From NCBI GenBank assembly GCA_030651175.1, contig JAUSCR010000029.1, positions 1-44,605 of the forward strand: 44,605 nucleotides of DNA, in the 5' to 3' direction. This document shows positions 4,314 through 40,894 of the stretch, in pieces. Positions within the stretch are counted from its first letter, which is position 1. Each line of letters begins with the position of its first letter. The notes below the pieces were generated by a model. The model saw only the letters and a program-made list of their open reading frames with translations, was not told the origin of the DNA and made no database searches. A program made the position numbers and the translations under genes. Source of the DNA: Dehalococcoidia bacterium. Its GTDB lineage: Bacteria > Chloroflexota > Dehalococcoidia > Lucifugimonadales > SHYF01.

Positions 4314-7225
4314 ACCAGGAACCTCCTACGAGGGTAAACGTGACTACCGACAACCGCATAACAATAACCGTTGACGGCCAGCAGGTCCAGGCAAAGCCCG
4401 GCGCTATGGCGTTGGAGGCGGCCATGGAGGCGGGCATCTACGTTCCGTACCTCTGCTACCACACAGGCATGAAGCCATTTGCCGCCTGCCGCATGTGTGT
4501 TGTGCAGGAGGAGGTGGAGGTAGAGGTGGAGCGCGACGGCCAGAAGGTCAAGGAGAAGCAGCTCAGGCCGCCCACGGCCTCGTGCACATTGCCTGTCAGA
4601 CCTGGCCTGGTAATCAGGACAGCTACAGACTCCCTGCGCCAGTTGCAACGAGGCATTCTGGAGATGCTCATCTCGGAGCACCCCCACGGATGCCTTACCT
4701 GCCACCGCATAGAGCTTTGCGGGCCGGAGGACATCTGCCTGCGCCACGTCTCGGTAAATGACCGGTGTGTCATCTGCCCCAAGAACGAGCGGTGCGAACT
4801 GAAGGACACCGTCCGTTTCTTTGGCATGGAGTTGGAGTCGCCCCTCTCCTACAAGACCCGCGCCCTGCCCGTGGAAGAGGCCGACCCCTTCTACGACCGC
4901 GACTACAACCTGTGCATCGTCTGTGGCCGCTGCGTCCGAGTCTGCGAGGAGGTCCGCGGCGACAGCGCCATCACATTCATCGAACGGGCTGGGCAGTCGC
5001 TGGTGGGCACCTCCCGTGGCACATCCCTTTTGGAGTCGGGGTGCGAGTTCTGTGGCGCCTGCCTTGATGTATGCCCTGTGGGAGCCCTGGTGGAGCGCGA
5101 GAATAAGTGGGACAAGGCGGTGCGCGTGGAGCGCACGGTTTGTCCACACTGCCCCGTGGGTTGCCAGCTAAACCTGGAGGTAAACAAGCGGGAGAAGGTG
5201 ATACGGGCCATCCCGGAGATCAACGCCCCAGCCAACCGGGGCCAGGCCTGCTTCAAGGGGAAGTTCGGACTGGAGTACGTGAACCATGAAGACAGACTCA
5301 GGCACCCCCTCATCCGGCGCAACGGTCAGCTAGAGGCCGCCACCTGGGACGAAGCGCTATCACTCATTGCCGAGACGCTGCCCAGATACAAGGGCAGTGC
5401 CTTCGCAGCCATCGCCTCGGCCCGCAGCACCAACGAGACAGCCTATCTGTTGCAGAAGTTCGCGCGCACTGTGATGGACAGCAACAGCGTGGACGTGGAG
5501 TCCAACATCATTCCAGCCGCGAGCCGGGCGCTGGCGGAGCCTCTTGGCTACGCAGCCTCCACCAATCCCATCTGGGATTTGGAAGGAGCCAAGTGTATCC
5601 TGGCCGTGGACACCAACACCACGGAGGAGCACAACGTGGTTGGTGTACCCATCAAGCGCGCCACCAAGAAGGGCGCCAGGCTCATCGTGATAGATGCCCG
5701 CGAGGTGGAGCTGACGCGGTACGCGCATCTGTGGCTGCGCCCGCGTCCCGGCGCCACACTGACGCTCCTGGGCGGCATCCTACGATGCATACTGGAGCAG
5801 GGCCTGGCGGATCAGGCGTTCCTCCAAGAGCAGTGCGACGGCCTGGAGGGGCTGCGCGCCTCCCTGGAACCGTTCACCTTGCAGCACGTGGCCCAGGTCA
5901 CTGGCGTGCCGGAGCAGCAACTCCTGCAGGCGGCGGGTGTGTACGCCACTTCCGGTGCCTCGGCCATCCTGTACGCCCTGGACAACGTCCCCGCCGAGGC
6001 GCAGGCCGCCCAGGTACATGCTCTGGCTAACCTGGCGCTGGTTACAGGCAACGTGGGCAAACCCTCCACCGGGCTGTACGCCCTCCCTCGCGGCGCTAAC
6101 GGGCGGGGTGCCATGGACGTGGGCTGCGTGCCTGACATGCTGCCTGGATACCAGCGGCTGGATCACGAGCCTGTGCGTCAGAGGTTTGCCCAGAGTTGGG
6201 GATCCCAGCTATCGGAGCAGCCCGGCTTGGGCATTGCCGCAGCCCTTCATGCCGCCAGCGAAGGCTCCGTTAATGCGATGCTTCTGCTGGGCGATAGCGT
6301 CAGCACTACCCTCGGAGACCTGGACCAAGGGTATGAGGCCCTGGAGCGCCTGGAGTTTCTGGTGGTGCAGGACACGTTCCTGGGGCCGGCGGCCCAGCGC
6401 GCCCATGTGGTGCTGCCCGCCACCACATTCGCCGAGGAGGACGGAACCTACACCAACCTGGAACGGCGGGTGCAGCTTCTAAAGAAGGCCACATCTCCCA
6501 AGAACACCGAGGCCGAGTCCGGCTGGCAATTCCTTTGCCGGCTGGCCCGGCGCATGGGCGCCCAGGGATTTGGCTTCCAGAGCACGGCTGAGGTGTTCGA
6601 TGAAATCGCCTCCCTGGCGCCCATCTACGGCGGCATATCCCATCGCAGGCTGTTGAAAGAGGCGACCATTACACTGAGGCCCGATCCAGTCAATCCCCAG
6701 CCCACGCAGCTTCTGCACTCAGACAGGGTCTCGCGTGGCATCCAATGGCCCTGCCCGGATGCCAGTGCCCCAGGGACGCCCGTGCTGTACAGCGATGGTT
6801 TCCCAATGGGGCGCGCCAGGCTGATGCCTCTTTCGGCACCCCCAGCGGCATCTCGGCCGACCACGGAGTTTCCACTTCTCTTTGTCCCAGGCCGCGTGCT
6901 GCTCCAGGGGGAGCGCGACTCCGGCGTGGCGCGTGTTGGCGGTGTGAACCTGGTTGCGAGACAGGAGCTGGTGGAGATACATCCCCTGGATATGGCGGAG
7001 GCTGGTATACAGGATGGCGACGTGGTGGACGTGGTATTGCCAACCGGGCAGCGAATATCTGGTATGGCGTCTCTTTCCCAAAGAGCACACAGGGGCGTCG
7101 TATCTATGACCACACTCTTCGGCGAGCTGGCCACCCGCCTCCAGGCCAGCGAAGCCCCTGACCCCATGGCCCGGGTGCCCGGCCTTACAATCAGCGCGGC
7201 GCGCCTGGAGAAGGTGGCGAGGTAA
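4283..7225 (+). CDS. NuoG/FdhA-like molybdopterin-oxidoreductase-family subunit: N-terminal 2Fe-2S and 4Fe-4S domains plus an MopB-like domain that lacks the catalytic Cys/Sec
   Basis: Contains CYHTGMKPFAACRMC (2Fe-2S), HPHGCLTCH, CIVCGRCVRVC and CEFCGACLDVCP (Fe-S) and VCPHCPVGCQLN (MopB Fe-S). Collinear with FdhF through ...TNETAYLLQKFAR... and PRGANGRGAMDVG. The start is uncertain. The ATG at 4283 lies inside repeat A1. A GTG at 4340 preceded by GAGGG gives MTTDNRITITVDGQ, a typical N-terminus. The 4229 start in the ORF track is repeat read-through. Confidence 0.8.
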   Translation: MVEEVIITLIDQEPPTRVNVTTDNRITITVDGQQVQAKPGAMALEAAMEAGIYVPYLCYHTGMKPFAACRMCVVQEEVEVEVERDGQKVKEKQLRPPTASCTLPVRPGLVIRTATDSLRQLQRGILEMLISEHPHGCLTCHRIELCGPEDICLRHVSVNDRCVICPKNERCELKDTVRFFGMELESPLSYKTRALPVEEADPFYDRDYNLCIVCGRCVRVCEEVRGDSAITFIERAGQSLVGTSRGTSLLESGCEFCGACLDVCPVGALVERENKWDKAVRVERTVCPHCPVGCQLNLEVNKREKVIRAIPEINAPANRGQACFKGKFGLEYVNHEDRLRHPLIRRNGQLEAATWDEALSLIAETLPRYKGSAFAAIASARSTNETAYLLQKFARTVMDSNSVDVESNIIPAASRALAEPLGYAASTNPIWDLEGAKCILAVDTNTTEEHNVVGVPIKRATKKGARLIVIDAREVELTRYAHLWLRPRPGATLTLLGGILRCILEQGLADQAFLQEQCDGLEGLRASLEPFTLQHVAQVTGVPEQQLLQAAGVYATSGASAILYALDNVPAEAQAAQVHALANLALVTGNVGKPSTGLYALPRGANGRGAMDVGCVPDMLPGYQRLDHEPVRQRFAQSWGSQLSEQPGLGIAAALHAASEGSVNAMLLLGDSVSTTLGDLDQGYEALERLEFLVVQDTFLGPAAQRAHVVLPATTFAEEDGTYTNLERRVQLLKKATSPKNTEAESGWQFLCRLARRMGAQGFGFQSTAEVFDEIASLAPIYGGISHRRLLKEATITLRPDPVNPQPTQLLHSDRVSRGIQWPCPDASAPGTPVLYSDGFPMGRARLMPLSAPPAASRPTTEFPLLFVPGRVLLQGERDSGVARVGGVNLVARQELVEIHPLDMAEAGIQDGDVVDVVLPTGQRISGMASLSQRAHRGVVSMTTLFGELATRLQASEAPDPMARVPGLTISAARLEKVAR

Positions 7226-7229
7226 TTCC

Positions 7230-7952
7230 ATGCCACCACCTTTGCCCAAGGCCACTATCGTCCGCCGGGAGGACATCACCCAGGACCTATGGAAGATATG
7301 GTTGAAGCCGGAGATCCCCTTCAAGTTCAAGCCGGGCCAGTATTGCACCATCGGGTTTGACGATGTCGAGCGGGCCTACTCCATTGTCTCATCGCCCTAT
7401 GAAGAGCAAATAGAGCTTTTTATCGAGCTGGTGCCGCCACCCTATGGGAACATGACGCCTCTTCTATACGAGCTGGGCGTTGGGAGGCAGGTGACCTTTC
7501 GGCCCAGGGCCAAAGGGATTTTCACCCTGGACGAAAGGTACAGCACGCATCTAATGGCGTCCACCGTCACTGGCGTGGTGCCATATGTAAGTATCCTCCG
7601 CAGCTACCTCCACGACCTTAGAAGCGGCCACAGGTTTTACGTGCTTCAAGGGGCTAGCTACGCCGACGAGTTTACCTATGACAAAGAGATTCTTGAGATG
7701 GCGCATGCTCATCCTGACTTCATAGCGTATGTACCCACGGTCAGCCGGCCCAAGGAAGAGAGGAATCACGGCTGGGAAGGCGAGACGGGCAGGGTGAACA
7801 CTCTGCTAGAAAAGTACGTGGGGAAATTCGGCCTCGACCGGGACGATACGTTGATATACGCCTGCGGCCATCCAGGGATGATAGAGGATGTGAAAGCTAG
7901 AGCGACTGCCCTGGACTTCCTGGTACAAGAGGAGCGGTTCTGGAAGGACTAG
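7230..7952 (+). CDS. Ferredoxin-NADP(+) reductase-type FAD/NAD(P)-binding oxidoreductase
   Basis: 240 aa with RAYSIVSSP (the RxYS FAD motif), an NAD(P)-binding segment ASTVTGVVPYVSIL and a C-terminal YACGHPGM. Starts 4 nt after the preceding stop, with a GAGGT RBS. Confidence 0.8.
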   Translation: MPPPLPKATIVRREDITQDLWKIWLKPEIPFKFKPGQYCTIGFDDVERAYSIVSSPYEEQIELFIELVPPPYGNMTPLLYELGVGRQVTFRPRAKGIFTLDERYSTHLMASTVTGVVPYVSILRSYLHDLRSGHRFYVLQGASYADEFTYDKEILEMAHAHPDFIAYVPTVSRPKEERNHGWEGETGRVNTLLEKYVGKFGLDRDDTLIYACGHPGMIEDVKARATALDFLVQEERFWKD

Positions 7953-7955
7953 GAG

Positions 7956-8690
7956 ATGCCTGAACCACCTACCATCTTGGAACTCATACGCAACGGCACC
8001 ATGAGCGCCGAGATGGCGGCTACTTTGTGGGCCGCCGTGGACCAGCGCCTCTCCTTCGTCACGGTGGCTATACCGCGCCTGGCCGGCAAAACCACTACGA
8101 CTAACGCCATCCTGTCGCTCCTGCCGCCTGATGTGCCTGTCCACCGCCTGAGCGGAGACGAGGCGGAGATGGCCCGCCTGAAGAAGGCGGCCACGGGTGG
8201 ATACCTGGTGGTTGGCGAGTTCGCCCAGGCGCCGATACCCACATACATCTGGGGCGCGCCCGTGCGCCGTGTCTTCGACACCCTGACAGCTGGCTACTCC
8301 CTGGCGGTAGCCCTTCACGCCCGCAGCCTTCAGGAGACATTCGATGCCATCTGCCTGGGCAACGGCGTCACCGACGAGCAGGCGTCGCGCATCGGCATGA
8401 TGCTCTACATTCGCCGTTTCGGTGAGGATCCATCCAGCTTCTGGCGCCGCCTCTCAGAGGTGCATGAGATAGACCGGGTGCAAGCTGGACGACCCGCGGG
8501 CCGGCTGCTTCACCGGTGGGTGGAGAAAGACGACCGCTTCGAGTTGGTGGATGCGCCCAGGAAGGTGAGCGCCAGCCCTGCGGAGTTGGCCGCTCGGACG
8601 GCCCGCCTGAAGGACATGGTGGAGGCGCGACGCACCTCTGCTGCGAACGTGGCTAGCATGGTGGCTGAGTACCACCGGATGTCATTCTGA
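7956..8690 (+). CDS. Stand-alone PilT/VirB11-like (type II/IV secretion NTPase family) ATPase core with a degenerate Walker A
   Basis: 244 aa. ELIRNGTMSAEMAATLWAAVDQRLSFVTVAIPRLAGKTTTTNAILSLLPP resembles the P-loop region of secretion ATPases. YLVVGEF resembles Walker B and AVALHARS the His box. The last codons and the stop lie in a repeat module (GTCATTCTGAGCGCAGCGAAGAATC). Confidence 0.5.
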   Translation: MPEPPTILELIRNGTMSAEMAATLWAAVDQRLSFVTVAIPRLAGKTTTTNAILSLLPPDVPVHRLSGDEAEMARLKKAATGGYLVVGEFAQAPIPTYIWGAPVRRVFDTLTAGYSLAVALHARSLQETFDAICLGNGVTDEQASRIGMMLYIRRFGEDPSSFWRRLSEVHEIDRVQAGRPAGRLLHRWVEKDDRFELVDAPRKVSASPAELAARTARLKDMVEARRTSAANVASMVAEYHRMSF

Positions 8691-8731
8691 GCGCAGCGAA
8701 GAATCTAAAGCGTTAGGATTGACCTCGGCAG

Positions 8732-10706: not shown

Positions 10707-11167
10707 TGCGGAAGTCATGAAGGGGGTATGCGCTTTGCCTTCAACCGCTTGCGCTCCTCAGCCAACCGCCGGTCAGTCTCGGTCTTCGGGACCGAGAAGA
10801 CGCGGCGGGCTACGCGCTCAAACTTGCCGAAGCTACACTATTGACCATAGTTATGCTCGTTTCAGACCTCAAGCCAATGATTGCGCCTGCATTGCAATTA
10901 GGGCCAGGTAGCAATGAACCGTAACCTCGAAGAAGCTCGACGAAGTCGGCTTCCGCAAGCCCCGCACCGTGATATGATTTCAGGGCTTGTCCGCCGAAGC
11001 CCCTGCCCGTCGGGCCTTGGCAGGCGGGTCGGCGTAGGGGGGATGGCGAAGCTCCGCTTCTTGTCCCCCGCAGCTTTAGCGTAGGGGATATGAAGAATTT
11101 ACACACAGAATGAGGTAACATCTATCTTGTCGGGAGTCGCTAAGATTCAACTACGGAGGTAAGTACC

Positions 11168-12061
11168 ATGAGCCAAGCACGAGAACGCTTCAGGGCCATT
11201 CTCTCCAGGAACACCTGCACCCCTGCCGCCTCCATCTTTGACCCTCTGTCCGCCCGCATCGCCGACATGATGGAATGGGAGGCGTGCAAACTGGCCGGTT
11301 CCGTGGCGAAGGCGGCCGACATGGCTGTCCCCGACAGCGTACCGTTCACGAACATGTCTGACCTGGTAGACGTGTGCCGCCGCATCACCCGAGCCGCCAA
11401 TCTACCGCTGATAGTTGACGCCGACGACGGCGGCGCCACACCGGTGAACGTCTTTCGTACCGTTAGAGAGCTGGAGGCCGCCGGTGTATCATGCATTGAG
11501 ATCGAGGACAACCAGGTCCCACCTCGGCTGGACACGGCAGCGGGTCGGCACGCCTTGATGATCCCAAAAGAGGAGCAAGTGGGGAAGCTCAGGGCTGCGG
11601 TAGCGGCCCGCACCGATCCAACCACAGTCATTGCGGCCCGGACCACCGTCCTCGAGCAGAAGCTACCCTTGGAGGAAGCCTTGGAGCGTATCAGGGCATA
11701 CTCCCAGACAGGAGTAGACGCCATCATGCTTCCTGGAGGTAGCGTTACCCGCGCCGACGTCGAAGCCGCGCACCGGGCTACATCGCTGCCCATTATCGTC
11801 ACCACCTCACCGCCCAATCTCAGCCTCAAGGACTCTCCGTTCCTGCTGGCTCACGGGGTAAAGGTCATTTATCTGGGCGTTGGCCTAGGCCAGCCTCCTT
11901 TCGCCATGGCGGTCAAAGCCATATACGACGCCCTGAAGCACTTGAAGGATGGAGGTGCGGCAGAGGACCTGAAAGCCCGTCAGGCCAGCCCGGAGCTTAT
12001 GAGGGCAGTGATCCGGACTGACGAATTCCTGAAGTGGGAGCGCGATTACACTCCTCATTGA
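11168..12061 (+). CDS. Isocitrate lyase / PEP mutase superfamily protein (methylisocitrate-lyase- or oxaloacetate-decarboxylase-like)
   Basis: 297 aa with PLIVDADDGGATPVNVFRTVRELEAAGVSCIEIEDNQ, the metal-binding DxD and (E/K)IED barrel segments of the family. Strong GGAGGT RBS. Confidence 0.8.
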   Translation: MSQARERFRAILSRNTCTPAASIFDPLSARIADMMEWEACKLAGSVAKAADMAVPDSVPFTNMSDLVDVCRRITRAANLPLIVDADDGGATPVNVFRTVRELEAAGVSCIEIEDNQVPPRLDTAAGRHALMIPKEEQVGKLRAAVAARTDPTTVIAARTTVLEQKLPLEEALERIRAYSQTGVDAIMLPGGSVTRADVEAAHRATSLPIIVTTSPPNLSLKDSPFLLAHGVKVIYLGVGLGQPPFAMAVKAIYDALKHLKDGGAAEDLKARQASPELMRAVIRTDEFLKWERDYTPH

Positions 12062-35660: not shown

Positions 35661-35806
35661 GGGTGCAGGGGGCGAAGCCCCCGCTGGGGGTCTGGGGTCC
35701 GATGATGCTCTGCTCATCGAGATGCCGACTCCGTCGAGCGCCGACCTTGTCGAGCGTCCTCGACGGAGTCGGCATCTCGACAAAGCCGGAGGTATCCCCC
35801 AGATCC
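35661..35806 (+). repeat. Family-A composite repeat, copy 11 (H1 plus a split H2 carrying a nested long palindrome; no H3)
   Basis: H1 GGGGGCGAAGCCCCC. H2 left arm TCTGGGGT at 35691-35698 and right arm GGTATCCCCCAGAT at 35790-35803. Between them is a perfect 22-bp inverted repeat, 35717-35738 / 35759-35780. Confidence 0.8.
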
Positions 35807-35824
35807 TTATTTCTCATTGCCTGA

Positions 35825-35853
35825 TTGCAGCGCCCACGCGCTATGGGTATACT
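35825..35853 (+). promoter_or_regulatory. Candidate promoter of the vapBC module
   Basis: TTGCAG (35825-35830), 17-nt spacer, TATACT (35848-35853), 34 nt upstream of ATG 35888. Confidence 0.5.
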
Positions 35854-35887
35854 TTGTGTGAAATATTGTGGGACACGAGGTAATGAG

Positions 35888-36139
35888 ATGCGAACCCACC
35901 TTATCCTCCCAGAAGAGATGGTAAAGGAAGTAGACGCTTTGGTCGGGAAGCGTAAACGGAGCCAATTTGTGGGGGAAGCGGTGCGGGAGAAGCTGAGGCG
36001 AGAGAATCTACTGGCGGCTCTGGCGGCGACGGCAGGTATCCTCTCTGCTGAGGATTATCCCGAATGGGCTACTTCTGAAGAGGTCGCTGCTTGGGTGCAT
36101 GACATGCGCCAGCGGGATGACGAACGTTTGGAGAGGTGA
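35888..36139 (+). CDS. vapB: Ribbon-helix-helix (CopG/VapB-like) antitoxin
   Basis: 83 aa. N-terminus MRTHLILPEEMVKEVDALVGKRKRSQFVGEAVREKL is a typical RHH beta-strand plus helix. Sits immediately upstream of a PIN gene. The start at 35825 in the ORF track is unlikely because it lacks an RBS. Confidence 0.75.
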   Translation: MRTHLILPEEMVKEVDALVGKRKRSQFVGEAVREKLRRENLLAALAATAGILSAEDYPEWATSEEVAAWVHDMRQRDDERLER

Positions 36140-36143
36140 AGCA

Positions 36144-36530
36144 GTGACTCAGTACCTTCTGGACACTACAGCCATCGTCGACCATCTTCGCGGACGGCGA
36201 AGTGTAATTGACTTGCTGACCTCTCTAGGGCAAGCCGGTCATCGGCTTGGCGTCTGTTGCATCAGCATTGCAGAAGCGTACGCTGGCCTTCGTCCGCAGG
36301 ATAGGGCCAAGGCCGACCTTCTCATTCACGGTTTGGAATTCTCCAACATTAGCAGCGAGGCCGCCAAAACCGCTGGTAGGCTAAGATATGACTGGGCCAG
36401 GAGTGGAGTGACCCTACATATCACCGACGCCTTAATTGCCTCGGTAGCTATTGAAGAAAGGGCTACCTTGATTACTGCCAATGTGAAAGATTTCCCCATG
36501 CAAGAAGTTCATATCATGCCCCAACCTTAA
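36144..36530 (+). CDS. vapC: PIN-domain ribonuclease toxin (VapC family)
   Basis: YLLDTTAIVDHL (first acidic residue), ISIAEAYAG and HITDALIASVA (further conserved acidic/Thr positions). GTG 36144 is preceded by GGAGAGG. The alternative ATG 36117 would overlap vapB. Confidence 0.8.
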   Translation: MTQYLLDTTAIVDHLRGRRSVIDLLTSLGQAGHRLGVCCISIAEAYAGLRPQDRAKADLLIHGLEFSNISSEAAKTAGRLRYDWARSGVTLHITDALIASVAIEERATLITANVKDFPMQEVHIMPQP

Positions 36531-36567
36531 TGAATGCTTGCGGACATAACTTCAAGGAAGCTACGTT

Positions 36568-37563
36568 ATGACCACCTACCGCGCCGCCGGCGTTGACCTG
36601 GACGCAGCGGCTCACGTCAAGGAACTGTTCAAGCCCCACGTGCGCTCCACCTTTGGCCCACAGGTGCTGGGCGACATTGGCTTCTTCGGCGGGCTGTTCC
36701 ACTTGCAGGGGTACCGCGACCCCGTGCTGGTGGCGACTACCGACGGCGTTGGCACCAAGGTGAAGCTGGCCATCTGGATGGACCGGTTCGACACCCTGGG
36801 CTACGACGTGGTCAACCAGAGTGTCAACGATGTCCTGGCCACAGGCGCTAGGCCCCTGTTCTTTCTGGACTACATCGCCGTGGAGACGCTGGTGCCCCAC
36901 CAGATGGAGGCCATCGTCAAGAGCATCGCCGAGGCGTGCCGCCAGGTGGGATGCGCGCTCCTGGGCGGCGAGACGGCCCAGATGCGCGGCGTCTACCTCC
37001 CAGGCACCTTTGACCTGGCGGGATTCATGGTAGGAGCGGCGGAGCGGGACAAGCTGCTGGACCCTTCCACCGTGCGGGAAGGGGATACCCTCTTGGCCCT
37101 GCCATCCAGCGGGCTGCACACCAACGGCTACTCCCTGGTGCGCGCCGCCTTCGGCCTGGAAGAGGACCAATCTTCGCTGAAGGCGTACCATCGGGAGCTG
37201 GGCCGCACCCTGGGTGAGGCGTTGCTGGAGCCGCACCGGGCCTACTGGCCGCTGCTAGAACCCGTGCTGCCCCTCATAAAGACCATGGCCCACATCACCG
37301 GCGGAGGCCTGTCTGACAACCTGGCGCGGGCCATGCCCAAGGGGCTGGCGGGCCACATAGACCGCGGCTCTTGGGAGGTGCCTGCGATTTTCCGTATAAT
37401 CCAGGAGCGAGGCGAGATACCAGACCAGGAGATGGAGCGCGTGTTCAATATGGGCGTGGGCATGGTGCTGATGTGTGCTCCGGAGCACGCCGCAGAGGTG
37501 CGACGCCTGCTCCCGCAGGCGTGGGTGGTGGGGGAGGTGGTAAGTGTGTCCGCCCATGTTTGA
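36568..37563 (+). CDS. purM: Phosphoribosylformylglycinamidine cyclo-ligase (AIR synthetase)
   Basis: 331 aa with TYRAAGVDLDAA, LVATTDGVGTKVKLA, GYDVVNQSVNDVLATGARPLFFLDY and GGETAQM. Confidence 0.95.
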   Translation: MTTYRAAGVDLDAAAHVKELFKPHVRSTFGPQVLGDIGFFGGLFHLQGYRDPVLVATTDGVGTKVKLAIWMDRFDTLGYDVVNQSVNDVLATGARPLFFLDYIAVETLVPHQMEAIVKSIAEACRQVGCALLGGETAQMRGVYLPGTFDLAGFMVGAAERDKLLDPSTVREGDTLLALPSSGLHTNGYSLVRAAFGLEEDQSSLKAYHRELGRTLGEALLEPHRAYWPLLEPVLPLIKTMAHITGGGLSDNLARAMPKGLAGHIDRGSWEVPAIFRIIQERGEIPDQEMERVFNMGVGMVLMCAPEHAAEVRRLLPQAWVVGEVVSVSAHV

Positions 37564-37591
37564 CACTGTAAGCTTGAGAAAGAGATAGGGA

Positions 37592-38467
37592 ATGCCAACT
37601 CATCCACTTGCCGAGGTTTTCGGGTTTCCCACTGACAACCTCTCGAGAGAGGCGGCCAGATACCGGAGGAGTAAACTTTGCCCGTTCAACAACAAGGTGC
37701 CAAACTGCACAAAGGACAAAGCTAACGATCCTCTCGGAGTATGTAGCATTTACGATGACGATGAGGTTGTAATCACCTGTCCGATCAGGTTTCGCCAGGA
37801 ATGGATCATTGCAGAAGATGCCGCCACTTTCCTCTTTCCTGCTGGGGCAACATGGACCTCGTTGACCGAAGTTCGGCTGAAGGACAAATACGGGAAGACT
37901 GCTGGCAACATTGACATTGTGTTGGTGGCCTACAACGATCAGGGGCGAGTTGTTGACTTCGGCGCGCTTGAAATACAAGGTGTCTACATTACTGGCAATG
38001 TACGCCGTCCTTTCCAGCACTACATGGAGGATCCAGCTAGACGTAGTAACATGGATTGGACGCAGCAAACAAACTACCCGCGCCCAGACTATCTTTCATC
38101 GTCTCGAAAGCGGCTCGCTCCGCAGTTGATCTACAAGGGGGGCATCCTCAACGCATGGAACAAGAAAATAGCAGTGGCGCTCAATAGAGGATTTTACGAC
38201 ACCCTTCCGGTACTAGAAGAAACTGATGAAGCAGGGGCGGATATAGCCTGGCTAATCTATGACTTGAGACGAGACGGCAGACAAAACAGATACCTACTCC
38301 ACCACCACAAAACAGTTTACACTCAGTTTGAAGCTTCTCTCAACCTGATCACCAGATCGGAACCAGGAGAACAGCAAGACTTTATCGATCAGCTTCAGAA
38401 TAAGCTTGATGATAAGCTAGAAGGCGAAAATCCCCCAGATGCACCAACGATAGACATCCTTCTATAG
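37592..38467 (+). CDS. NotI-family (PD-(D/E)xK fold, N-terminal Cys4 metal site) type II restriction endonuclease
   Basis: 291 aa. LAEVFGFP...CPFNNKVPNCTKDKANDPLGVCSIYDDDEVVITCPIRF gives four Cys in the NotI-like arrangement. Nuclease core NIDIVLV...FGALEIQGVY. Markedly lower GC than the flanks and adjacent to a methylase. Confidence 0.65.
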   Translation: MPTHPLAEVFGFPTDNLSREAARYRRSKLCPFNNKVPNCTKDKANDPLGVCSIYDDDEVVITCPIRFRQEWIIAEDAATFLFPAGATWTSLTEVRLKDKYGKTAGNIDIVLVAYNDQGRVVDFGALEIQGVYITGNVRRPFQHYMEDPARRSNMDWTQQTNYPRPDYLSSSRKRLAPQLIYKGGILNAWNKKIAVALNRGFYDTLPVLEETDEAGADIAWLIYDLRRDGRQNRYLLHHHKTVYTQFEASLNLITRSEPGEQQDFIDQLQNKLDDKLEGENPPDAPTIDILL

Positions 38468-38478
38468 GCTATAAATCA

Positions 38479-39384
38479 ATGGTTCAACTATCTCTTCCCA
38501 GTTACCAAGAAAACGAAAGCATTGTGAACGTGGCCTCTGTGCCACAGCGCAGTCCATTCCGCTATCCAGGCGGCAAAACTTGGCTAGTTCCACATATCCG
38601 AAAATGGCTTATCAGCCGCCCGACCAAACCAAGCGAACTGATAGAACCTTTTGCTGGCGGCGCTATTGTTGGTCTGACAGTCGCCTTTGAAAACCTAGCC
38701 CAGGTGGTCACTCTGGTAGAGTTGGATGATGAGGTAGCAGCTCTGTGGAAAACTATTCTCGCAGGCGACGTAGAATGGTTGACCCATAGGATCACCACGT
38801 TTGATGTCAATCCAGAATCCGTCCAGGTAGAGTTGGTCAAGACCAACCTTGATAAGAAAGATAAAGCCTTCCAAACACTTCTACGAAACAGGGTCAACCA
38901 CGGCGGAATCATGGCTCCTGGAAGCGGAGTTATCAAATACGGAGAAAACGGGAAAGGAATAAAGTCGCGCTGGTATCCTGACACATTGAAAAAGCGCATT
39001 CTCCGAATAGTAGCCATCAAGGACAGGATACGGTTTATCGAAGGCGATGGGCTGGAGGTGTTGAAGGAGAATGCACAACGCTCGGATGCCGTGTTTTTCA
39101 TAGATCCTCCTTATACTGCGGCGGGCAAGAAAGCGGGGACACGACTCTATCGGCACCACAAACTAGACCACGAAGAGTTATTCAGAATCGCCGAAACACT
39201 CACTGGTGACTTTTTGATGACCTACGATAATACGGAAGATGTGCAGATATTAGCCCAGCGGCATGGCTTCGATACGCGGGCGATTCCAATGAAGAACACA
39301 CACCATGCAAAGATGACCGAGCTTCTCATAAGTCGTAATCTGGACTGGGCACGAGAGGAGTTTTCCGTTGAAAGCACTAATTAG
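38479..39384 (+). CDS. Dam-like (D12 class, alpha group) N6-adenine DNA methyltransferase
   Basis: 301 aa with FRYPGGKTWL (motif X-like), EPFAGGAIVGL (SAM-binding FxGxG) and the catalytic FFIDPPY. Lower GC. The last 17 nt overlap the purH start. Confidence 0.8.
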   Translation: MVQLSLPSYQENESIVNVASVPQRSPFRYPGGKTWLVPHIRKWLISRPTKPSELIEPFAGGAIVGLTVAFENLAQVVTLVELDDEVAALWKTILAGDVEWLTHRITTFDVNPESVQVELVKTNLDKKDKAFQTLLRNRVNHGGIMAPGSGVIKYGENGKGIKSRWYPDTLKKRILRIVAIKDRIRFIEGDGLEVLKENAQRSDAVFFIDPPYTAAGKKAGTRLYRHHKLDHEELFRIAETLTGDFLMTYDNTEDVQILAQRHGFDTRAIPMKNTHHAKMTELLISRNLDWAREEFSVESTN

Positions 39385-40894
39385 CGTCTACGACAAGACC
39401 GGCGTTGTGGAGTTCGCGCGGGGCCTGGTCGGCCTGGGCTACGAGCTGGTAAGTACAGGCGGCACCTACAGCGAACTTGCCAAGGCCAAGCTGTCCGTCC
39501 AGCAGGTGTCCGACCTCACCGGCTTCCCGGAGATCATGGGTGGACGGGTCAAGACACTCCACCCCAAAATCCACGGTGGCATCCTGGCACGGCGTGAGAA
39601 CGTGGGAGACCGCGCAGAGCTGACCAAGCACGGAATAGACACCATTGACCTGGTGGCAGGCAACCTGTACCCCTTCCGGGAGACGGTTCGCAAGGCTGGC
39701 GTCACCCTGGAAGATGCCCTGGAAAACATTGACATTGGCGGCCCCAGCTTCATACGAGCGGCGGCCAAGAACTTCCCCCACGTTGTGGTCGTGGTGGAAC
39801 CCGCGGACTATTCGTCGGTAGTGGAGAGACTGCGCGCCGGCTCACTGAGCATGAATGACCGCCAGCGCCTGGCCCGCAAGGCATTCCAGCACGTGGCCCT
39901 CTACGACACTGCCATCGCCCACTACCTATCCAGCGCCGAGACCTCGGTATTCCCGCAAGAGTTGACCTTCGGCCTGGAGAAGCTGTACGAGACCCGCTAC
40001 GGCGAGAACCCGCACCAGAAGGGCGCCCTCTACGCCCCGGTGACCGGCGCGTGGGGCATGACCGCTGCCCGGCAGCTCCAGGGACAGGAGATGTCATTCA
40101 ACAACTGGGTGGATGCCAGCGCCGCCTGGGCCGCTGTCCAGGAGTTCAAGGAACCAGCCGTCGCCGTCATCAAGCACACCAACCCCTGCGGCCTGGCCAT
40201 ACACCAGGACATAGCTGAGGCCTATCGCCGCGCCTACCAGGGCGACCCAGTATCCGCCTATGGTGGCATCGTCTCCTTCAACAGGACGGTCACGGAAGAG
40301 GCGGCGAAGGCTCTGTCACCGATCTTTTATGAGGTGGTGATAGCGCCAGACTTCCAGGCCGAGGCGCTGGCTGTGCTCAAGCGAAAGCGCAACCTGCGAG
40401 TGCTGGCTGTCCCCGATGTCCAACGCCTGCCCGGGACCCGACTGGATGTCCGGCAGGTCGTGGGCGGCCTCCTGGTGCAGACCCCCGACGAGCTTGAGGA
40501 AAACCCTGCCGCCTGGAAGGTTGTGACGGAACGCCATCCCACACCACAGCAGTTAGAGGACATGGCCTTTGCCTGGAAGGTCTGCAAACACGTGAAGTCC
40601 AACGCCATCGTCATTGCCAGGGACAATAGGCTGCTGGGCATGGGCGCGGGCCAGCCCAACCGGGTGACCAGCGTGCGGCTGGCGGCCCAGGCAGCCGGGG
40701 AACATGCGCAGGGTGCAGTGCTGGCCTCGGACGCCATGTTCCCATTCGCCGACAACGTGGAGGCCGCAGCAGCCGCGGGCGTCAGCGCTGTGGTCCAGCC
40801 TGGCGGCTCCATACGGGACGAAGAGGTCATAGCCGCCGCCGACAAGCTGGGGCTGGCAATGGTGTTCACCGGGGTGCGGCATTTCAGGCATTAG
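39368..40894 (+). CDS. purH: Bifunctional AICAR transformylase / IMP cyclohydrolase
   Basis: 508 aa with KALISVYDKTGVVEFARGL, GGRVKTLHPKIHGGIL, IDLVAGNLYPF, HTNPCG and GMGAGQPNRV. TTG start preceded by GAGAGGAG. Confidence 0.95.
   Translation: MKALISVYDKTGVVEFARGLVGLGYELVSTGGTYSELAKAKLSVQQVSDLTGFPEIMGGRVKTLHPKIHGGILARRENVGDRAELTKHGIDTIDLVAGNLYPFRETVRKAGVTLEDALENIDIGGPSFIRAAAKNFPHVVVVVEPADYSSVVERLRAGSLSMNDRQRLARKAFQHVALYDTAIAHYLSSAETSVFPQELTFGLEKLYETRYGENPHQKGALYAPVTGAWGMTAARQLQGQEMSFNNWVDASAAWAAVQEFKEPAVAVIKHTNPCGLAIHQDIAEAYRRAYQGDPVSAYGGIVSFNRTVTEEAAKALSPIFYEVVIAPDFQAEALAVLKRKRNLRVLAVPDVQRLPGTRLDVRQVVGGLLVQTPDELEENPAAWKVVTERHPTPQQLEDMAFAWKVCKHVKSNAIVIARDNRLLGMGAGQPNRVTSVRLAAQAAGEHAQGAVLASDAMFPFADNVEAAAAAGVSAVVQPGGSIRDEEVIAAADKLGLAMVFTGVRHFRH

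Follow-up and report, generated by a model that had tools for sequence, protein, structure and literature searches.

Between purM and purH of a Dehalococcoidia bacterium (GCA_030651175.1, contig JAUSCR010000029.1; the window analysed here is the whole stretch of 44,605 nucleotides) lie two genes whose base composition differs clearly from that of the purine genes around them. The locus raises the question of what these genes encode, how they came to lie there and which DNA site they act on. We consider it highly probable that they represent an orthodox two-gene type II restriction-modification (R-M) module, which was horizontally acquired and lodged between purM and purH of the purF-purM-purH operon.

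The endonuclease and the methylase

Using the sequence of the window, we confirmed both reading frames and the originally predicted drop in GC content. The segment 37541-39355 has a GC content of 0.491, the lowest among 856 sliding intervals of 1815 bp (contig mean 0.598, sd 0.027). At third codon positions, GC is 0.531 in the endonuclease gene and 0.520 in the methylase gene, compared with 0.840 in purM, 0.798 in purH and 0.769 in purF. The features of the locus are the following.

36568..37563, + strand: purM (AIR synthase), left flank (TIGR00878, 1.7e-107)
37541..39355, + strand: horizontally acquired segment of about 1815 bp, missing from the empty sites of the relatives L007 and L008 (GC 0.491 and comparison with relatives)
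37592..38467, + strand: predicted NotI-family PD-(D/E)XK type II restriction endonuclease, 291 aa (PF12183, 1.3e-61)
38438..38467, + strand: final 30 nt of the endonuclease reading frame, DAPTIDILL and stop, 100% identical as non-coding DNA in the relative L001
38479..39384, + strand: predicted alpha-type (D12 class) N6-adenine DNA methyltransferase, 301 aa (PF02086, 3.8e-13)
39356..39384, + strand: native purH leader and first purH codons, which form the methylase C-terminal tail REEFSVESTN and stop in another frame (alignment with empty-site and other relatives, L007 sequence)
39368..40894, + strand: purH (AICAR formyltransferase / IMP cyclohydrolase), right flank, TTG start (NF002049, 1.7e-222)

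The adjacent purF|purM junction carries another inserted module of the addiction type, VapBC.

The first protein was originally assigned to the NotI family, and a profile search agrees: it matches PF12183 with 208.5 bits (cut-off 22; E 1.3e-61) over model positions 5-237 of 238. Of the NotI hallmarks that had been named, EVFGF (residues 8-12), LEIQ (residues 126-129) and a Cys4 cluster are all present, while the predicted x8/x12/x12 spacing of the cysteines has to be corrected to C30-x8-C39-x11-C51-x11-C63. Neither these four cysteines nor the putative catalytic residues D108, E127 and Q129 vary among 43 close homologues and 10 divergent ones from plasmids. With a length of 291 aa, which is the modal length among its homologues, the protein is full length, and an alignment of homologues demonstrated that the DAPTIDILL tail is native to the family. 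In PADLOC it matches a generic type II REase model only (2.2e-8).

To reach NotI, the Pfam model or a profile of wider scope is required; neither a pairwise phmmer search nor a profile made from the 43 close homologues retrieved NotI from the PDB. With a broad profile built from the close homologues and from plasmid homologues of 27-58% identity, NotI was the sole PDB match (3bvq, E 1.1e-6). In this alignment the cysteines correspond to TCPF, CVK, GVCVV and VCPNR of NotI, and D108, E127 and Q129 to FDWTL and LEIQ. A Foldseek search with a predicted structure points in the same direction, with NotI as the sole significant structural neighbour (3c25_A/B and 3bvq_A/B, E 1.6e-7 to 2.1e-6, probability 1.00; next match E 0.24), the model itself being of moderate quality (pLDDT 65.6, Cys4 domain poorly modelled, TM 0.41-0.47 to NotI). 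It has been described that NotI carries an Fe-Cys4 motif and has a Q variant of the active site (Pingoud 2014 review, PMC4081073). The protein from the window resembles NotI (3BVQ/3C25, PF12183) in the PD-(D/E)XK core with Q in place of K (D...E-x-Q) and, residue by residue, in the N-terminal Cys4 motif and the AE(F/V)FG(H/F) N-terminus, so that its cysteines are the equivalent of the NotI metal-binding motif and a putative metal site. It differs from NotI in its low identity of about 14%, in its length (291 aa versus 383 aa) and in having an N6-adenine methylase as partner.

The second protein matches PF02086 with 50.2 bits (cut-off 22; 3.8e-13), as well as the adenine methyltransferase structure 7m6b (7.6e-6). 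The motifs FRYPGGK, FAGG and DPPY that had identified it as a D12-class N6-adenine methylase were found again; EPFAGG (FxGxG, residues 56-61) precedes DPPY (residues 209-212), and both are invariant in 37 homologues. PADLOC gave PD-Lambda-5_B as the best match (2.8e-43), and several generic type II MTase models matched too. An orthologue of Dam, methylating GATC, was considered and rejected: the protein scores below the NCBIfam cut-offs (TIGR00571, 43.1 versus 114.85 bits; NF008152, 17.4 versus 441 bits) and is Dam-like in class only. No special avoidance of GATC was found in host DNA.

With both families matched and the pair conserved, the original description as a type II R-M cassette holds. 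In such a module the methylase would use S-adenosylmethionine to methylate adenine at N6 in each strand of a short site, probably a palindrome, and would thereby protect the host DNA. The endonuclease, presumably a homodimer whose N-terminal domain binds metal through Cys4 and whose active site is D108...E127-x-Q129, would cut the same site when it is unmethylated, for example in incoming phage or plasmid DNA. Both proteins are predicted to be active, judging from their intact conserved residues only. Since the two genes are co-directional with the purF-purM-purH operon, are separated by short spacers (purM-endonuclease 28 nt, endonuclease-methylase 11 nt, methylase-purH -17 nt) and show neither a predicted terminator between purM and purH nor an evident promoter of their own, read-through from the pur operon would most likely account for their transcription. 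This co-transcription is deduced from spacing alone. The cassette has no controller protein gene and the endonuclease gene precedes the methylase gene, and we counted these two points against an orthodox module, as they leave its safe establishment in a host hard to explain.

The pair is anything but rare. Homologues of the endonuclease number more than 6000 across phyla, and of 80 metagenomic loci with the methylase, about 46 have an endonuclease gene as its immediate upstream neighbour. The same order with tight spacing was found among unrelated housekeeping genes in L004, L011, L013, L098, L101 and L107, and homologues of 65-75% identity occur in unrelated contexts in Cyanobacteria, Armatimonadota, Planctomycetota and on Thermus plasmids. 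The RefSeq database already names a NotI-family endonuclease beside a 'DNA adenine methylase' on plasmids of Thermus brockianus, Aeromonas and Variovorax. The T. brockianus plasmid pTbrSNM4-1c (NZ_AP025595.1) has the same gene order, the tight spacing and the same methylase class, and its endonuclease is 58% identical over 98% of the length; the Aeromonas and Variovorax plasmids carry more distant pairs of the same kind. These annotated pairs are plasmid-borne and adjoin a tyrosine recombinase or transposase, whereas the pair in the window is chromosomal and located in a biosynthetic operon. Viral carriage was limited to four IMG/VR contigs and one weak phage match, so that viruses are not an obvious vehicle. 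The cassette is thus an ordinary member of a very widespread and already annotated family, and the 'new specificity' that had been put forward as its noteworthy novelty does not stand as such, given that this combination is found thousands of times in different phyla.

Insertion at the purM|purH slot and its later history

Sequence comparison with relatives proves an insertion between purM and purH, as had been proposed. In L007, whose purM is 90% identical, purM is followed by a 175-nt spacer and purH, and in L008 purM and purH are separated by about 45 nt; the cassette is absent from both of these Dehalococcoidia genomes. The left discontinuity lies at 37540/37541, and blastn breakpoints against L001, L006, L007 and L008 fall at 37540-37542. 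The switch in composition that had been placed after the purM stop is real and extreme; judged by homology, its left border needs a small correction to 23 nt upstream of that stop. Because the homology of purM to all relatives ends at 37540, the last seven purM codons are lineage-specific, and they are different in every relative. The right discontinuity is at about 39355/39356, within the purH leader. The TTG start of purH at 39368 matches the position of the ATG or TTG start in the same four relatives, which confirms the predicted overlap of 17 nt with the methylase gene. This overlap arises from the native purH leader and first codons being read in another frame as the methylase tail, and purH would now start within the 3'-terminal part of the methylase gene.

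As originally noted, there is no trace of an integrase or of flanking direct repeats: within 10 kb we found no integrase, transposase or tRNA, and the search for target-site duplications and terminal repeats returned only chance-level short repeats, none of them at both borders. Previous work has shown that R-M gene complexes behave as mobile units that are inserted at gene boundaries or in operon-like structures (Furuta, Abe & Kobayashi 2010, PMC2853133). The cassette resembles the units of that study in being a small unit placed exactly between two conserved genes, in having relatives with an empty site and in the substitution of alleles at the locus, and differs from them in lacking a long target duplication and flanking inverted repeats. 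It falls into their large 'other indel' or 'substitution' classes.

The slot is variable among the relatives. In L006 it is occupied by an aldo/keto reductase gene. The L001 lineage has kept the methylase (89% identical protein) and has a HEPN-like Ymh gene in place of the endonuclease. In L001-L003, solely 37541-38437 has no homologous counterpart, and the last 30 nt of the endonuclease gene are still present at 100% identity; in L001 they are non-coding DNA between the Ymh gene and the methylase gene. We read this stretch as the scar of a replacement, in which the Ymh gene later displaced the endonuclease gene of the L001 lineage and left the methylase behind. A recurrent Ymh and methylase module was also considered and rejected, as Ymh is absent from the 80 methylase loci and its closest relative adjoins a HicB-like antitoxin gene.

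Between the window and L001, differences at third codon positions amount to 18.6% in the methylase gene, 18.5% in purM and 21.6% in purH. By this comparison the methylase has co-diverged with purM and purH since the split from the L001 lineage, and the cassette entered before that split. It is thus not very recent. Amino-acid-changing differences affect 34 of 295 codons in the methylase gene, 14 of 324 in purM and 33 of 509 in purH, and the excess in the methylase could reflect relaxed constraint. Of the single simple insertion that had been envisaged, the insertion remains and the simplicity does not, with a cassette that predates the split and a slot that varies.

The recognition site and other readings of the locus

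The site of NotI, GCGGCCGC, contains no adenine. As the partner in the window is an N6-adenine methylase, the site of this pair must contain adenine and should not be GCGGCCGC. This earlier argument is reasonable, and a difference from the NotI site is supported indirectly by 22 GCGGCCGC sites in host DNA beside intact homologues (14 of 62 loci), which show no special avoidance (O/E 0.66 versus 0.58 in controls). The search for under-represented palindromes, based on 20-kb flanks and of low power, gave two weak candidates, AGATCT and GTCGAC, neither of which replicates. For AGATCT, O/E is 0.42 (z -3.8, bootstrap interval 0.26-0.57) across 568 kb of DNA from hosts whose endonuclease is intact, compared with 1.06 where the host lacks the endonuclease and 0.74 where the gene has decayed. 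In an independent set, AGATCT was observed 8 times with 9.8 expected and GTCGAC 2 times with 21.3 expected. Both are depleted within the cassettes, alongside several other sites. After clustering by sequence there was no clade-specific palindrome pattern, and in a wider scan of interrupted palindromes AGATCT was, at the noise level of that scan, not the top outlier. The most depleted adenine-containing palindromes of the window itself are CAGCTG, CTGCAG and GTCGAC. A bolder reading would be that the target of this NotI-fold subfamily is a 6-bp palindrome with adenine that has so far not been connected with the NotI fold, AGATCT and GTCGAC being the weak candidates, and that the purM|purH slot records a stepwise conversion from R-M to methylase plus HEPN toxin via the replacement of the endonuclease by Ymh with its 30-nt scar. 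We regard this combination as unlikely.

If the endonuclease were a true NotI isoschizomer, a cytosine methylase elsewhere would provide its protection, and the adenine methylase beside it would have no relation to it. Membership in the NotI family speaks for this, and the window holds no GCGGCCGC site where 2.2 are expected, a count that is uninformative. The conserved adjacency of endonuclease and methylase across phyla argues against it, as do the sites counted above, which are avoided no more than in controls, and the low identity to NotI; moreover, other branches of the NotI family that have C5 methylases as partners share only 27-32% identity with this endonuclease. We give this reading the least credence of all. 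Hardly more credible is an assignment of the cassette to PD-lambda-5-like defence rather than to classical R-M pairs. Vassallo et al. 2022 (PMC9519451) describe PD-lambda-5 of E. coli as a compacted system resembling RM+Abi, and its methylase component is the top PADLOC match of our methylase; for PD-lambda-5 an mrr-deficient host was needed. However, the methylase is matched by generic type II models as well, and the partner protein is unrelated, with no PD-Lambda-5_A match and a generic REase match only; as the A component is missing, we rejected membership in this system.

That the two genes are ancient, vertically inherited residents of the pur operon, with no insertion and a GC content lowered by functional constraint, is equally remote. 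The co-divergence of the methylase with purM and purH would fit, but the empty sites in L007 and L008 and the different cargo in L006 already contradict it, as do the 65-75% identical homologues in unrelated contexts of several phyla and a GC3 about 0.27 below that of the neighbours. Somewhat less improbable, though still very unlikely, is an inactive relic of an endonuclease beside a solitary ('orphan') methylase with, for example, a regulatory role, the locus no longer being a working restriction system. Decay of the endonuclease is common in the family (among 80 methylase loci, about 8 have only fragments and about 10 have none), and the sister lineage L001 has lost it. About 18 metagenomic loci, together with L001-L003, have a solitary methylase of this kind, their endonuclease having been replaced, reduced to fragments or lost. 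In contrast, the endonuclease in the window is intact, with its modal length and with every residue that is invariant among the 43 close and 10 divergent homologues, which speaks against a relic.

What the locus contributes

As an R-M system the pair is routine, its family being huge and both genes being already named in RefSeq. What deserves attention is a series of natural alleles found in a single intergenic slot of an essential operon, comprising the empty site, endonuclease with methylase, Ymh with methylase, and the aldo/keto reductase. Such a series dates the insertion relative to speciation and shows directly that a locus can exchange its endonuclease gene and still retain the methylase. 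It is also an example of how selfish modules of two genes establish themselves in the very small spaces within housekeeping operons without a recombinase. If true, the Ymh swap may be a natural intermediate towards defence modules of the 'RM+Abi' type. Cultured carriers of the pair exist, among them Thermus brockianus SNM4-1 and several filamentous cyanobacteria such as Oscillatoria princeps RMCB-10, Aerosakkonema sp. BLCC-F183 and Argonema galeatum, in which the recognition site of this subfamily, if not yet in REBASE, would be easy to determine.

An insertion at the purM|purH junction

On this 44.6-kb contig of a Dehalococcoidia MAG, the restriction-modification (R-M) cassette is arranged with its neighbours as follows:

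36568-37563, + strand, purM (TIGR00878, 1.7e-107)
37592-38467, + strand, endonuclease ORF, 291 aa
38479-39384, + strand, methylase ORF, 301 aa
39368-40894, + strand, purH (NF002049, 1.7e-222)

Both cassette proteins are present in NCBI at 100% identity, as 'NotI family restriction endonuclease' and 'DNA adenine methylase'. The low GC content described in the original prediction was confirmed. The segment 37541-39355 has a GC content of 0.491, the minimum among 856 same-size sliding windows on the contig (mean 0.598, sd 0.027), and the GC3 of the two genes is depressed (0.531 and 0.520, versus 0.769 for purF, 0.840 for purM and 0.798 for purH). The cassette is of horizontal origin. The predicted 17-nt overlap of the methylase with purH is real, the purH start position being kept in four relatives, and the ten C-terminal codons of the methylase (REEFSVESTN*) are the native ribosome-binding region and first codons of purH.

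Using a purM scan of GTDB species genomes and look-ups of the closest methylase homologue, we found relatives' loci (L-numbers) that, window included, are of four kinds. The junction is empty in L007 (purM 90% identical, 1.07-Mb contig), where purF and purM are followed by a 175-nt spacer and purH, as well as in L008 (purM 55% identical), with about 45 nt between purM and purH; these empty sites bear out the proposed insertion. L006, whose purM is 93% identical to that of the window, carries a high-GC aldo/keto reductase gene there (7058-8011; PF00248, 5e-64), and the junction therefore takes non-defence cargo as well. In L001, L002 and L003, three independent assemblies with a methylase 89% identical to that of the window, the endonuclease is replaced by a 268-aa HEPN-like 'Hypoth_Ymh' protein preceding the methylase (PF09509/TIGR02391; L001 5088-5999). 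In every comparison, homology ends at window 37540-37542 and restarts at 39356-39368, or at 38438 for L001.

As noted earlier for integrases and flanking repeats, the insert ends bear neither direct nor inverted repeats, and the DNA within 10 kb of the cassette has no integrase, transposase or tRNA. Documented R-M insertions include ones at gene boundaries and within operon-like structures (Furuta et al. 2010, PMC2853133), and the cassette, lacking border repeats, fits the large class of R-M indels and substitutions that show no target duplication (PMC2853133).

A long hairpin repeat (GTCATTCTGAGCGAAGCGAAGAATC followed by an inverted copy) lies in the empty spacer of L007, at 7009-7097. One arm recurs at window 8681-8705 with 1 mismatch (chance expectation 0) and may belong to a dispersed palindromic repeat family of the clade.

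Identity and prevalence of the R-M pair

The endonuclease matches Pfam NotI (PF12183) with 208.5 bits (E 1.3e-61) and near-complete model coverage. NotI in the PDB was not reached from it by pairwise phmmer or by a profile of 43 close homologues; a broad profile, built from close homologues and plasmid homologues of 27-58% identity, had NotI (3bvq/3c25) as its sole PDB match (E 1.1e-6). In this alignment the AEVFGF N-terminus stands opposite NotI IAEFFGH, the four cysteines opposite TCPF/CVK/GVCVV/VCPNR, D108 opposite FDWTL and E127-x-Q129 opposite LEIQ. All of these elements are invariant within the endonuclease family, the catalytic and metal-binding residues thus being conserved. NotI has been described with an Fe-Cys4 motif and a Q-for-K active-site variant (Pingoud et al. 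2014, PMC4081073). Foldseek with an AlphaFold2 model (pLDDT 65.6; Cys4 domain modelled poorly) gave NotI as the only significant neighbour (E 1.6e-7, probability 1.00, next match E 0.24), at a TM of 0.41-0.47 and 14% identity. Pfam match, broad profile and structural neighbour together bear out the predicted NotI-family membership. The motifs reported at first are present, but their cysteine spacing was wrong and is actually C-x8-C-x11-C-x11-C.

The partner is indeed a D12-class N6-adenine methylase, as judged from PF02086 (3.8e-13) and the motif order, in which FxGxG precedes DPPY. It scores far below the curated Dam cut-offs, and its nearest solved structure is the adenine methylase 7m6b (7.6e-6). 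In PADLOC, PD-Lambda-5_B was the top model for the methylase (2.8e-43), several generic type II methylase models matched as well, and the endonuclease had no PD-Lambda-5_A match. The published description of PD-lambda-5 goes no further than calling it a compacted RM+Abi-like system (PMC9519451).

The original prediction was correct as to family, class and insertion, and the cassette belongs to a known, abundant kind of R-M system. More than 6000 endonuclease homologues were found, the best 120 all being 64-88% identical, in Chloroflexota, Cyanobacteria, Armatimonadota, Planctomycetota, Omnitrophota and others; methylase homologues are likewise abundant across a broad range of phyla. The order endonuclease-methylase, with near-zero spacing, recurs amid unrelated housekeeping genes. 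Since NotI-family endonucleases adjoin adenine methylases on RefSeq plasmids of Thermus brockianus (58% identity), Aeromonas and Variovorax, the pairing of a NotI-fold enzyme with an m6A methylase is already known and not new. Other NotI-family branches on RefSeq plasmids neighbour a cytosine-C5 methylase (Sedimenticola, Paraburkholderia, Xanthomonas).

Among 80 metagenomic methylase loci, a full endonuclease lies directly upstream in about 46, fragments only in about 8, and none in about 10 (those with enough flanking DNA). This pattern is the usual R-M life cycle, with decay to solitary methylases. Intact methylases with nothing but endonuclease fragments upstream occur in L032, L033, L036, L066, L069, L073, L077 and L078, which represent independent endonuclease decay that left the methylase solitary.

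The two genes are convergent in L091 (9623-11344), with the endonuclease on the other strand and downstream of the methylase; its usual position is upstream on the same strand. In L011 (9829-13206; 5.2-Mb genome) a 1125-aa Eco57I/MmeI-like type IIG gene directly follows the cassette, forming a small defence cluster. In L100, L102, L103, L104 and L106 (about 10880-11760), gene calls give only a 215-222-aa ORF with no Pfam match after the endonuclease; tblastn finds that this stretch encodes a nearly complete methylase homologue, covering residues 1-292 in L100 and 11-292 in the other four at ~59-62% identity. The short calls may be due to start-codon choice or a frameshift in long-read assemblies.

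Age of the cassette and replacement of the endonuclease

At third codon positions, window and L001 differ by 18.6% in the methylase, 18.5% in purM, 21.6% in purH and 27.2% in purF. The methylase diverged alongside its neighbours, and the cassette therefore entered once, before the two lineages separated. Its GC3 is 0.52-0.53 in both, indicating no amelioration since the split.

The difference between window and L001 is confined to 37541-38437. Directly after the Ymh stop codon, ahead of the methylase start, L001 still has the final 30 nt of the endonuclease ORF unchanged (100% identity; GATGCACCAACGATAGACATCCTTCTATAG, DAPTIDILL*), a tail native to the endonuclease family. This remnant shows that in the L001 lineage the R-M cassette is older than Ymh, which took the place of the endonuclease gene, the methylase being retained. 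Ymh is a HEPN-superfamily family noted in R-M operons (PMC3710099). The L001 type is rare (93 matches) and does not occur at 80 other methylase loci, and a HicB-like antitoxin gene adjoins its closest relative; the Ymh-methylase adjacency looks like a one-off event, not a recurring module.

The preceding junction, purF|purM, is also occupied:

35698-36574, VapB-like/VapC toxin-antitoxin pair, ORFs 35825-36139 and 36099-36530 (PIN, PF01850, 9.3e-12)

This region is low in GC (0.54, GC3 0.54) and absent from L007 and L008, where purM directly follows purF. Two addiction-type modules thus fill successive intergenic gaps of one operon. The L001 VapC is only 50% identical to that of the window and the vapB region 85% identical at the DNA level; this suggests that the VapC toxin gene was also exchanged. 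The allelic series at purM|purH and the neighbouring VapBC insertion are what the present analysis adds.

Expression and recognition site

With spacers of 28 and 11 nt, no predicted terminator and only a promoter match at chance level, the cassette is probably transcribed via read-through of the pur operon. Translation of purH may be coupled to the methylase. By analogy with type IIP systems, the methylase would modify the N6-adenine of both strands of a palindromic site with AdoMet as donor, an endonuclease dimer would cut unmodified sites with Mg2+, and post-segregational killing would make the pair resist loss. The promoter match, sigma-70-like (TTGGGA-18-TATAAT, 10/12), lies in the 3' part of purM (37371-37400), ~190 nt before the endonuclease gene begins; the region has three such matches versus 1.8 by chance.

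An adenine methylase is unable to protect GCGGCCGC, the NotI site. Of 62 host loci with an intact homologue, 14 contain such sites next to it, 22 altogether, and avoidance is no stronger than in controls (O/E 0.66 versus 0.58); the window has 0 versus 2.2 expected, which is not informative. Since the site is neither protectable nor specially avoided, a recognition site different from that of NotI is supported indirectly. To that extent the proposed new specificity is supported, but its novelty was overstated, such pairs being already known.

The clearest contrast in palindrome avoidance within the discovery set was that of AGATCT, with an O/E of 0.42 for intact, 0.74 for decayed and 1.06 for absent endonuclease (z -3.8). 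It was not replicated on fresh loci (8 observed versus 9.8 expected), and GTCGAC was depleted there (2 versus 21.3). We found no clade structure accounting for this discrepancy, and a broader pattern scan of palindrome avoidance had large noise. The cassettes themselves avoid AGATCT, GTCGAC and several further sites, and the window's own avoidance profile points to CAGCTG, CTGCAG and GTCGAC.
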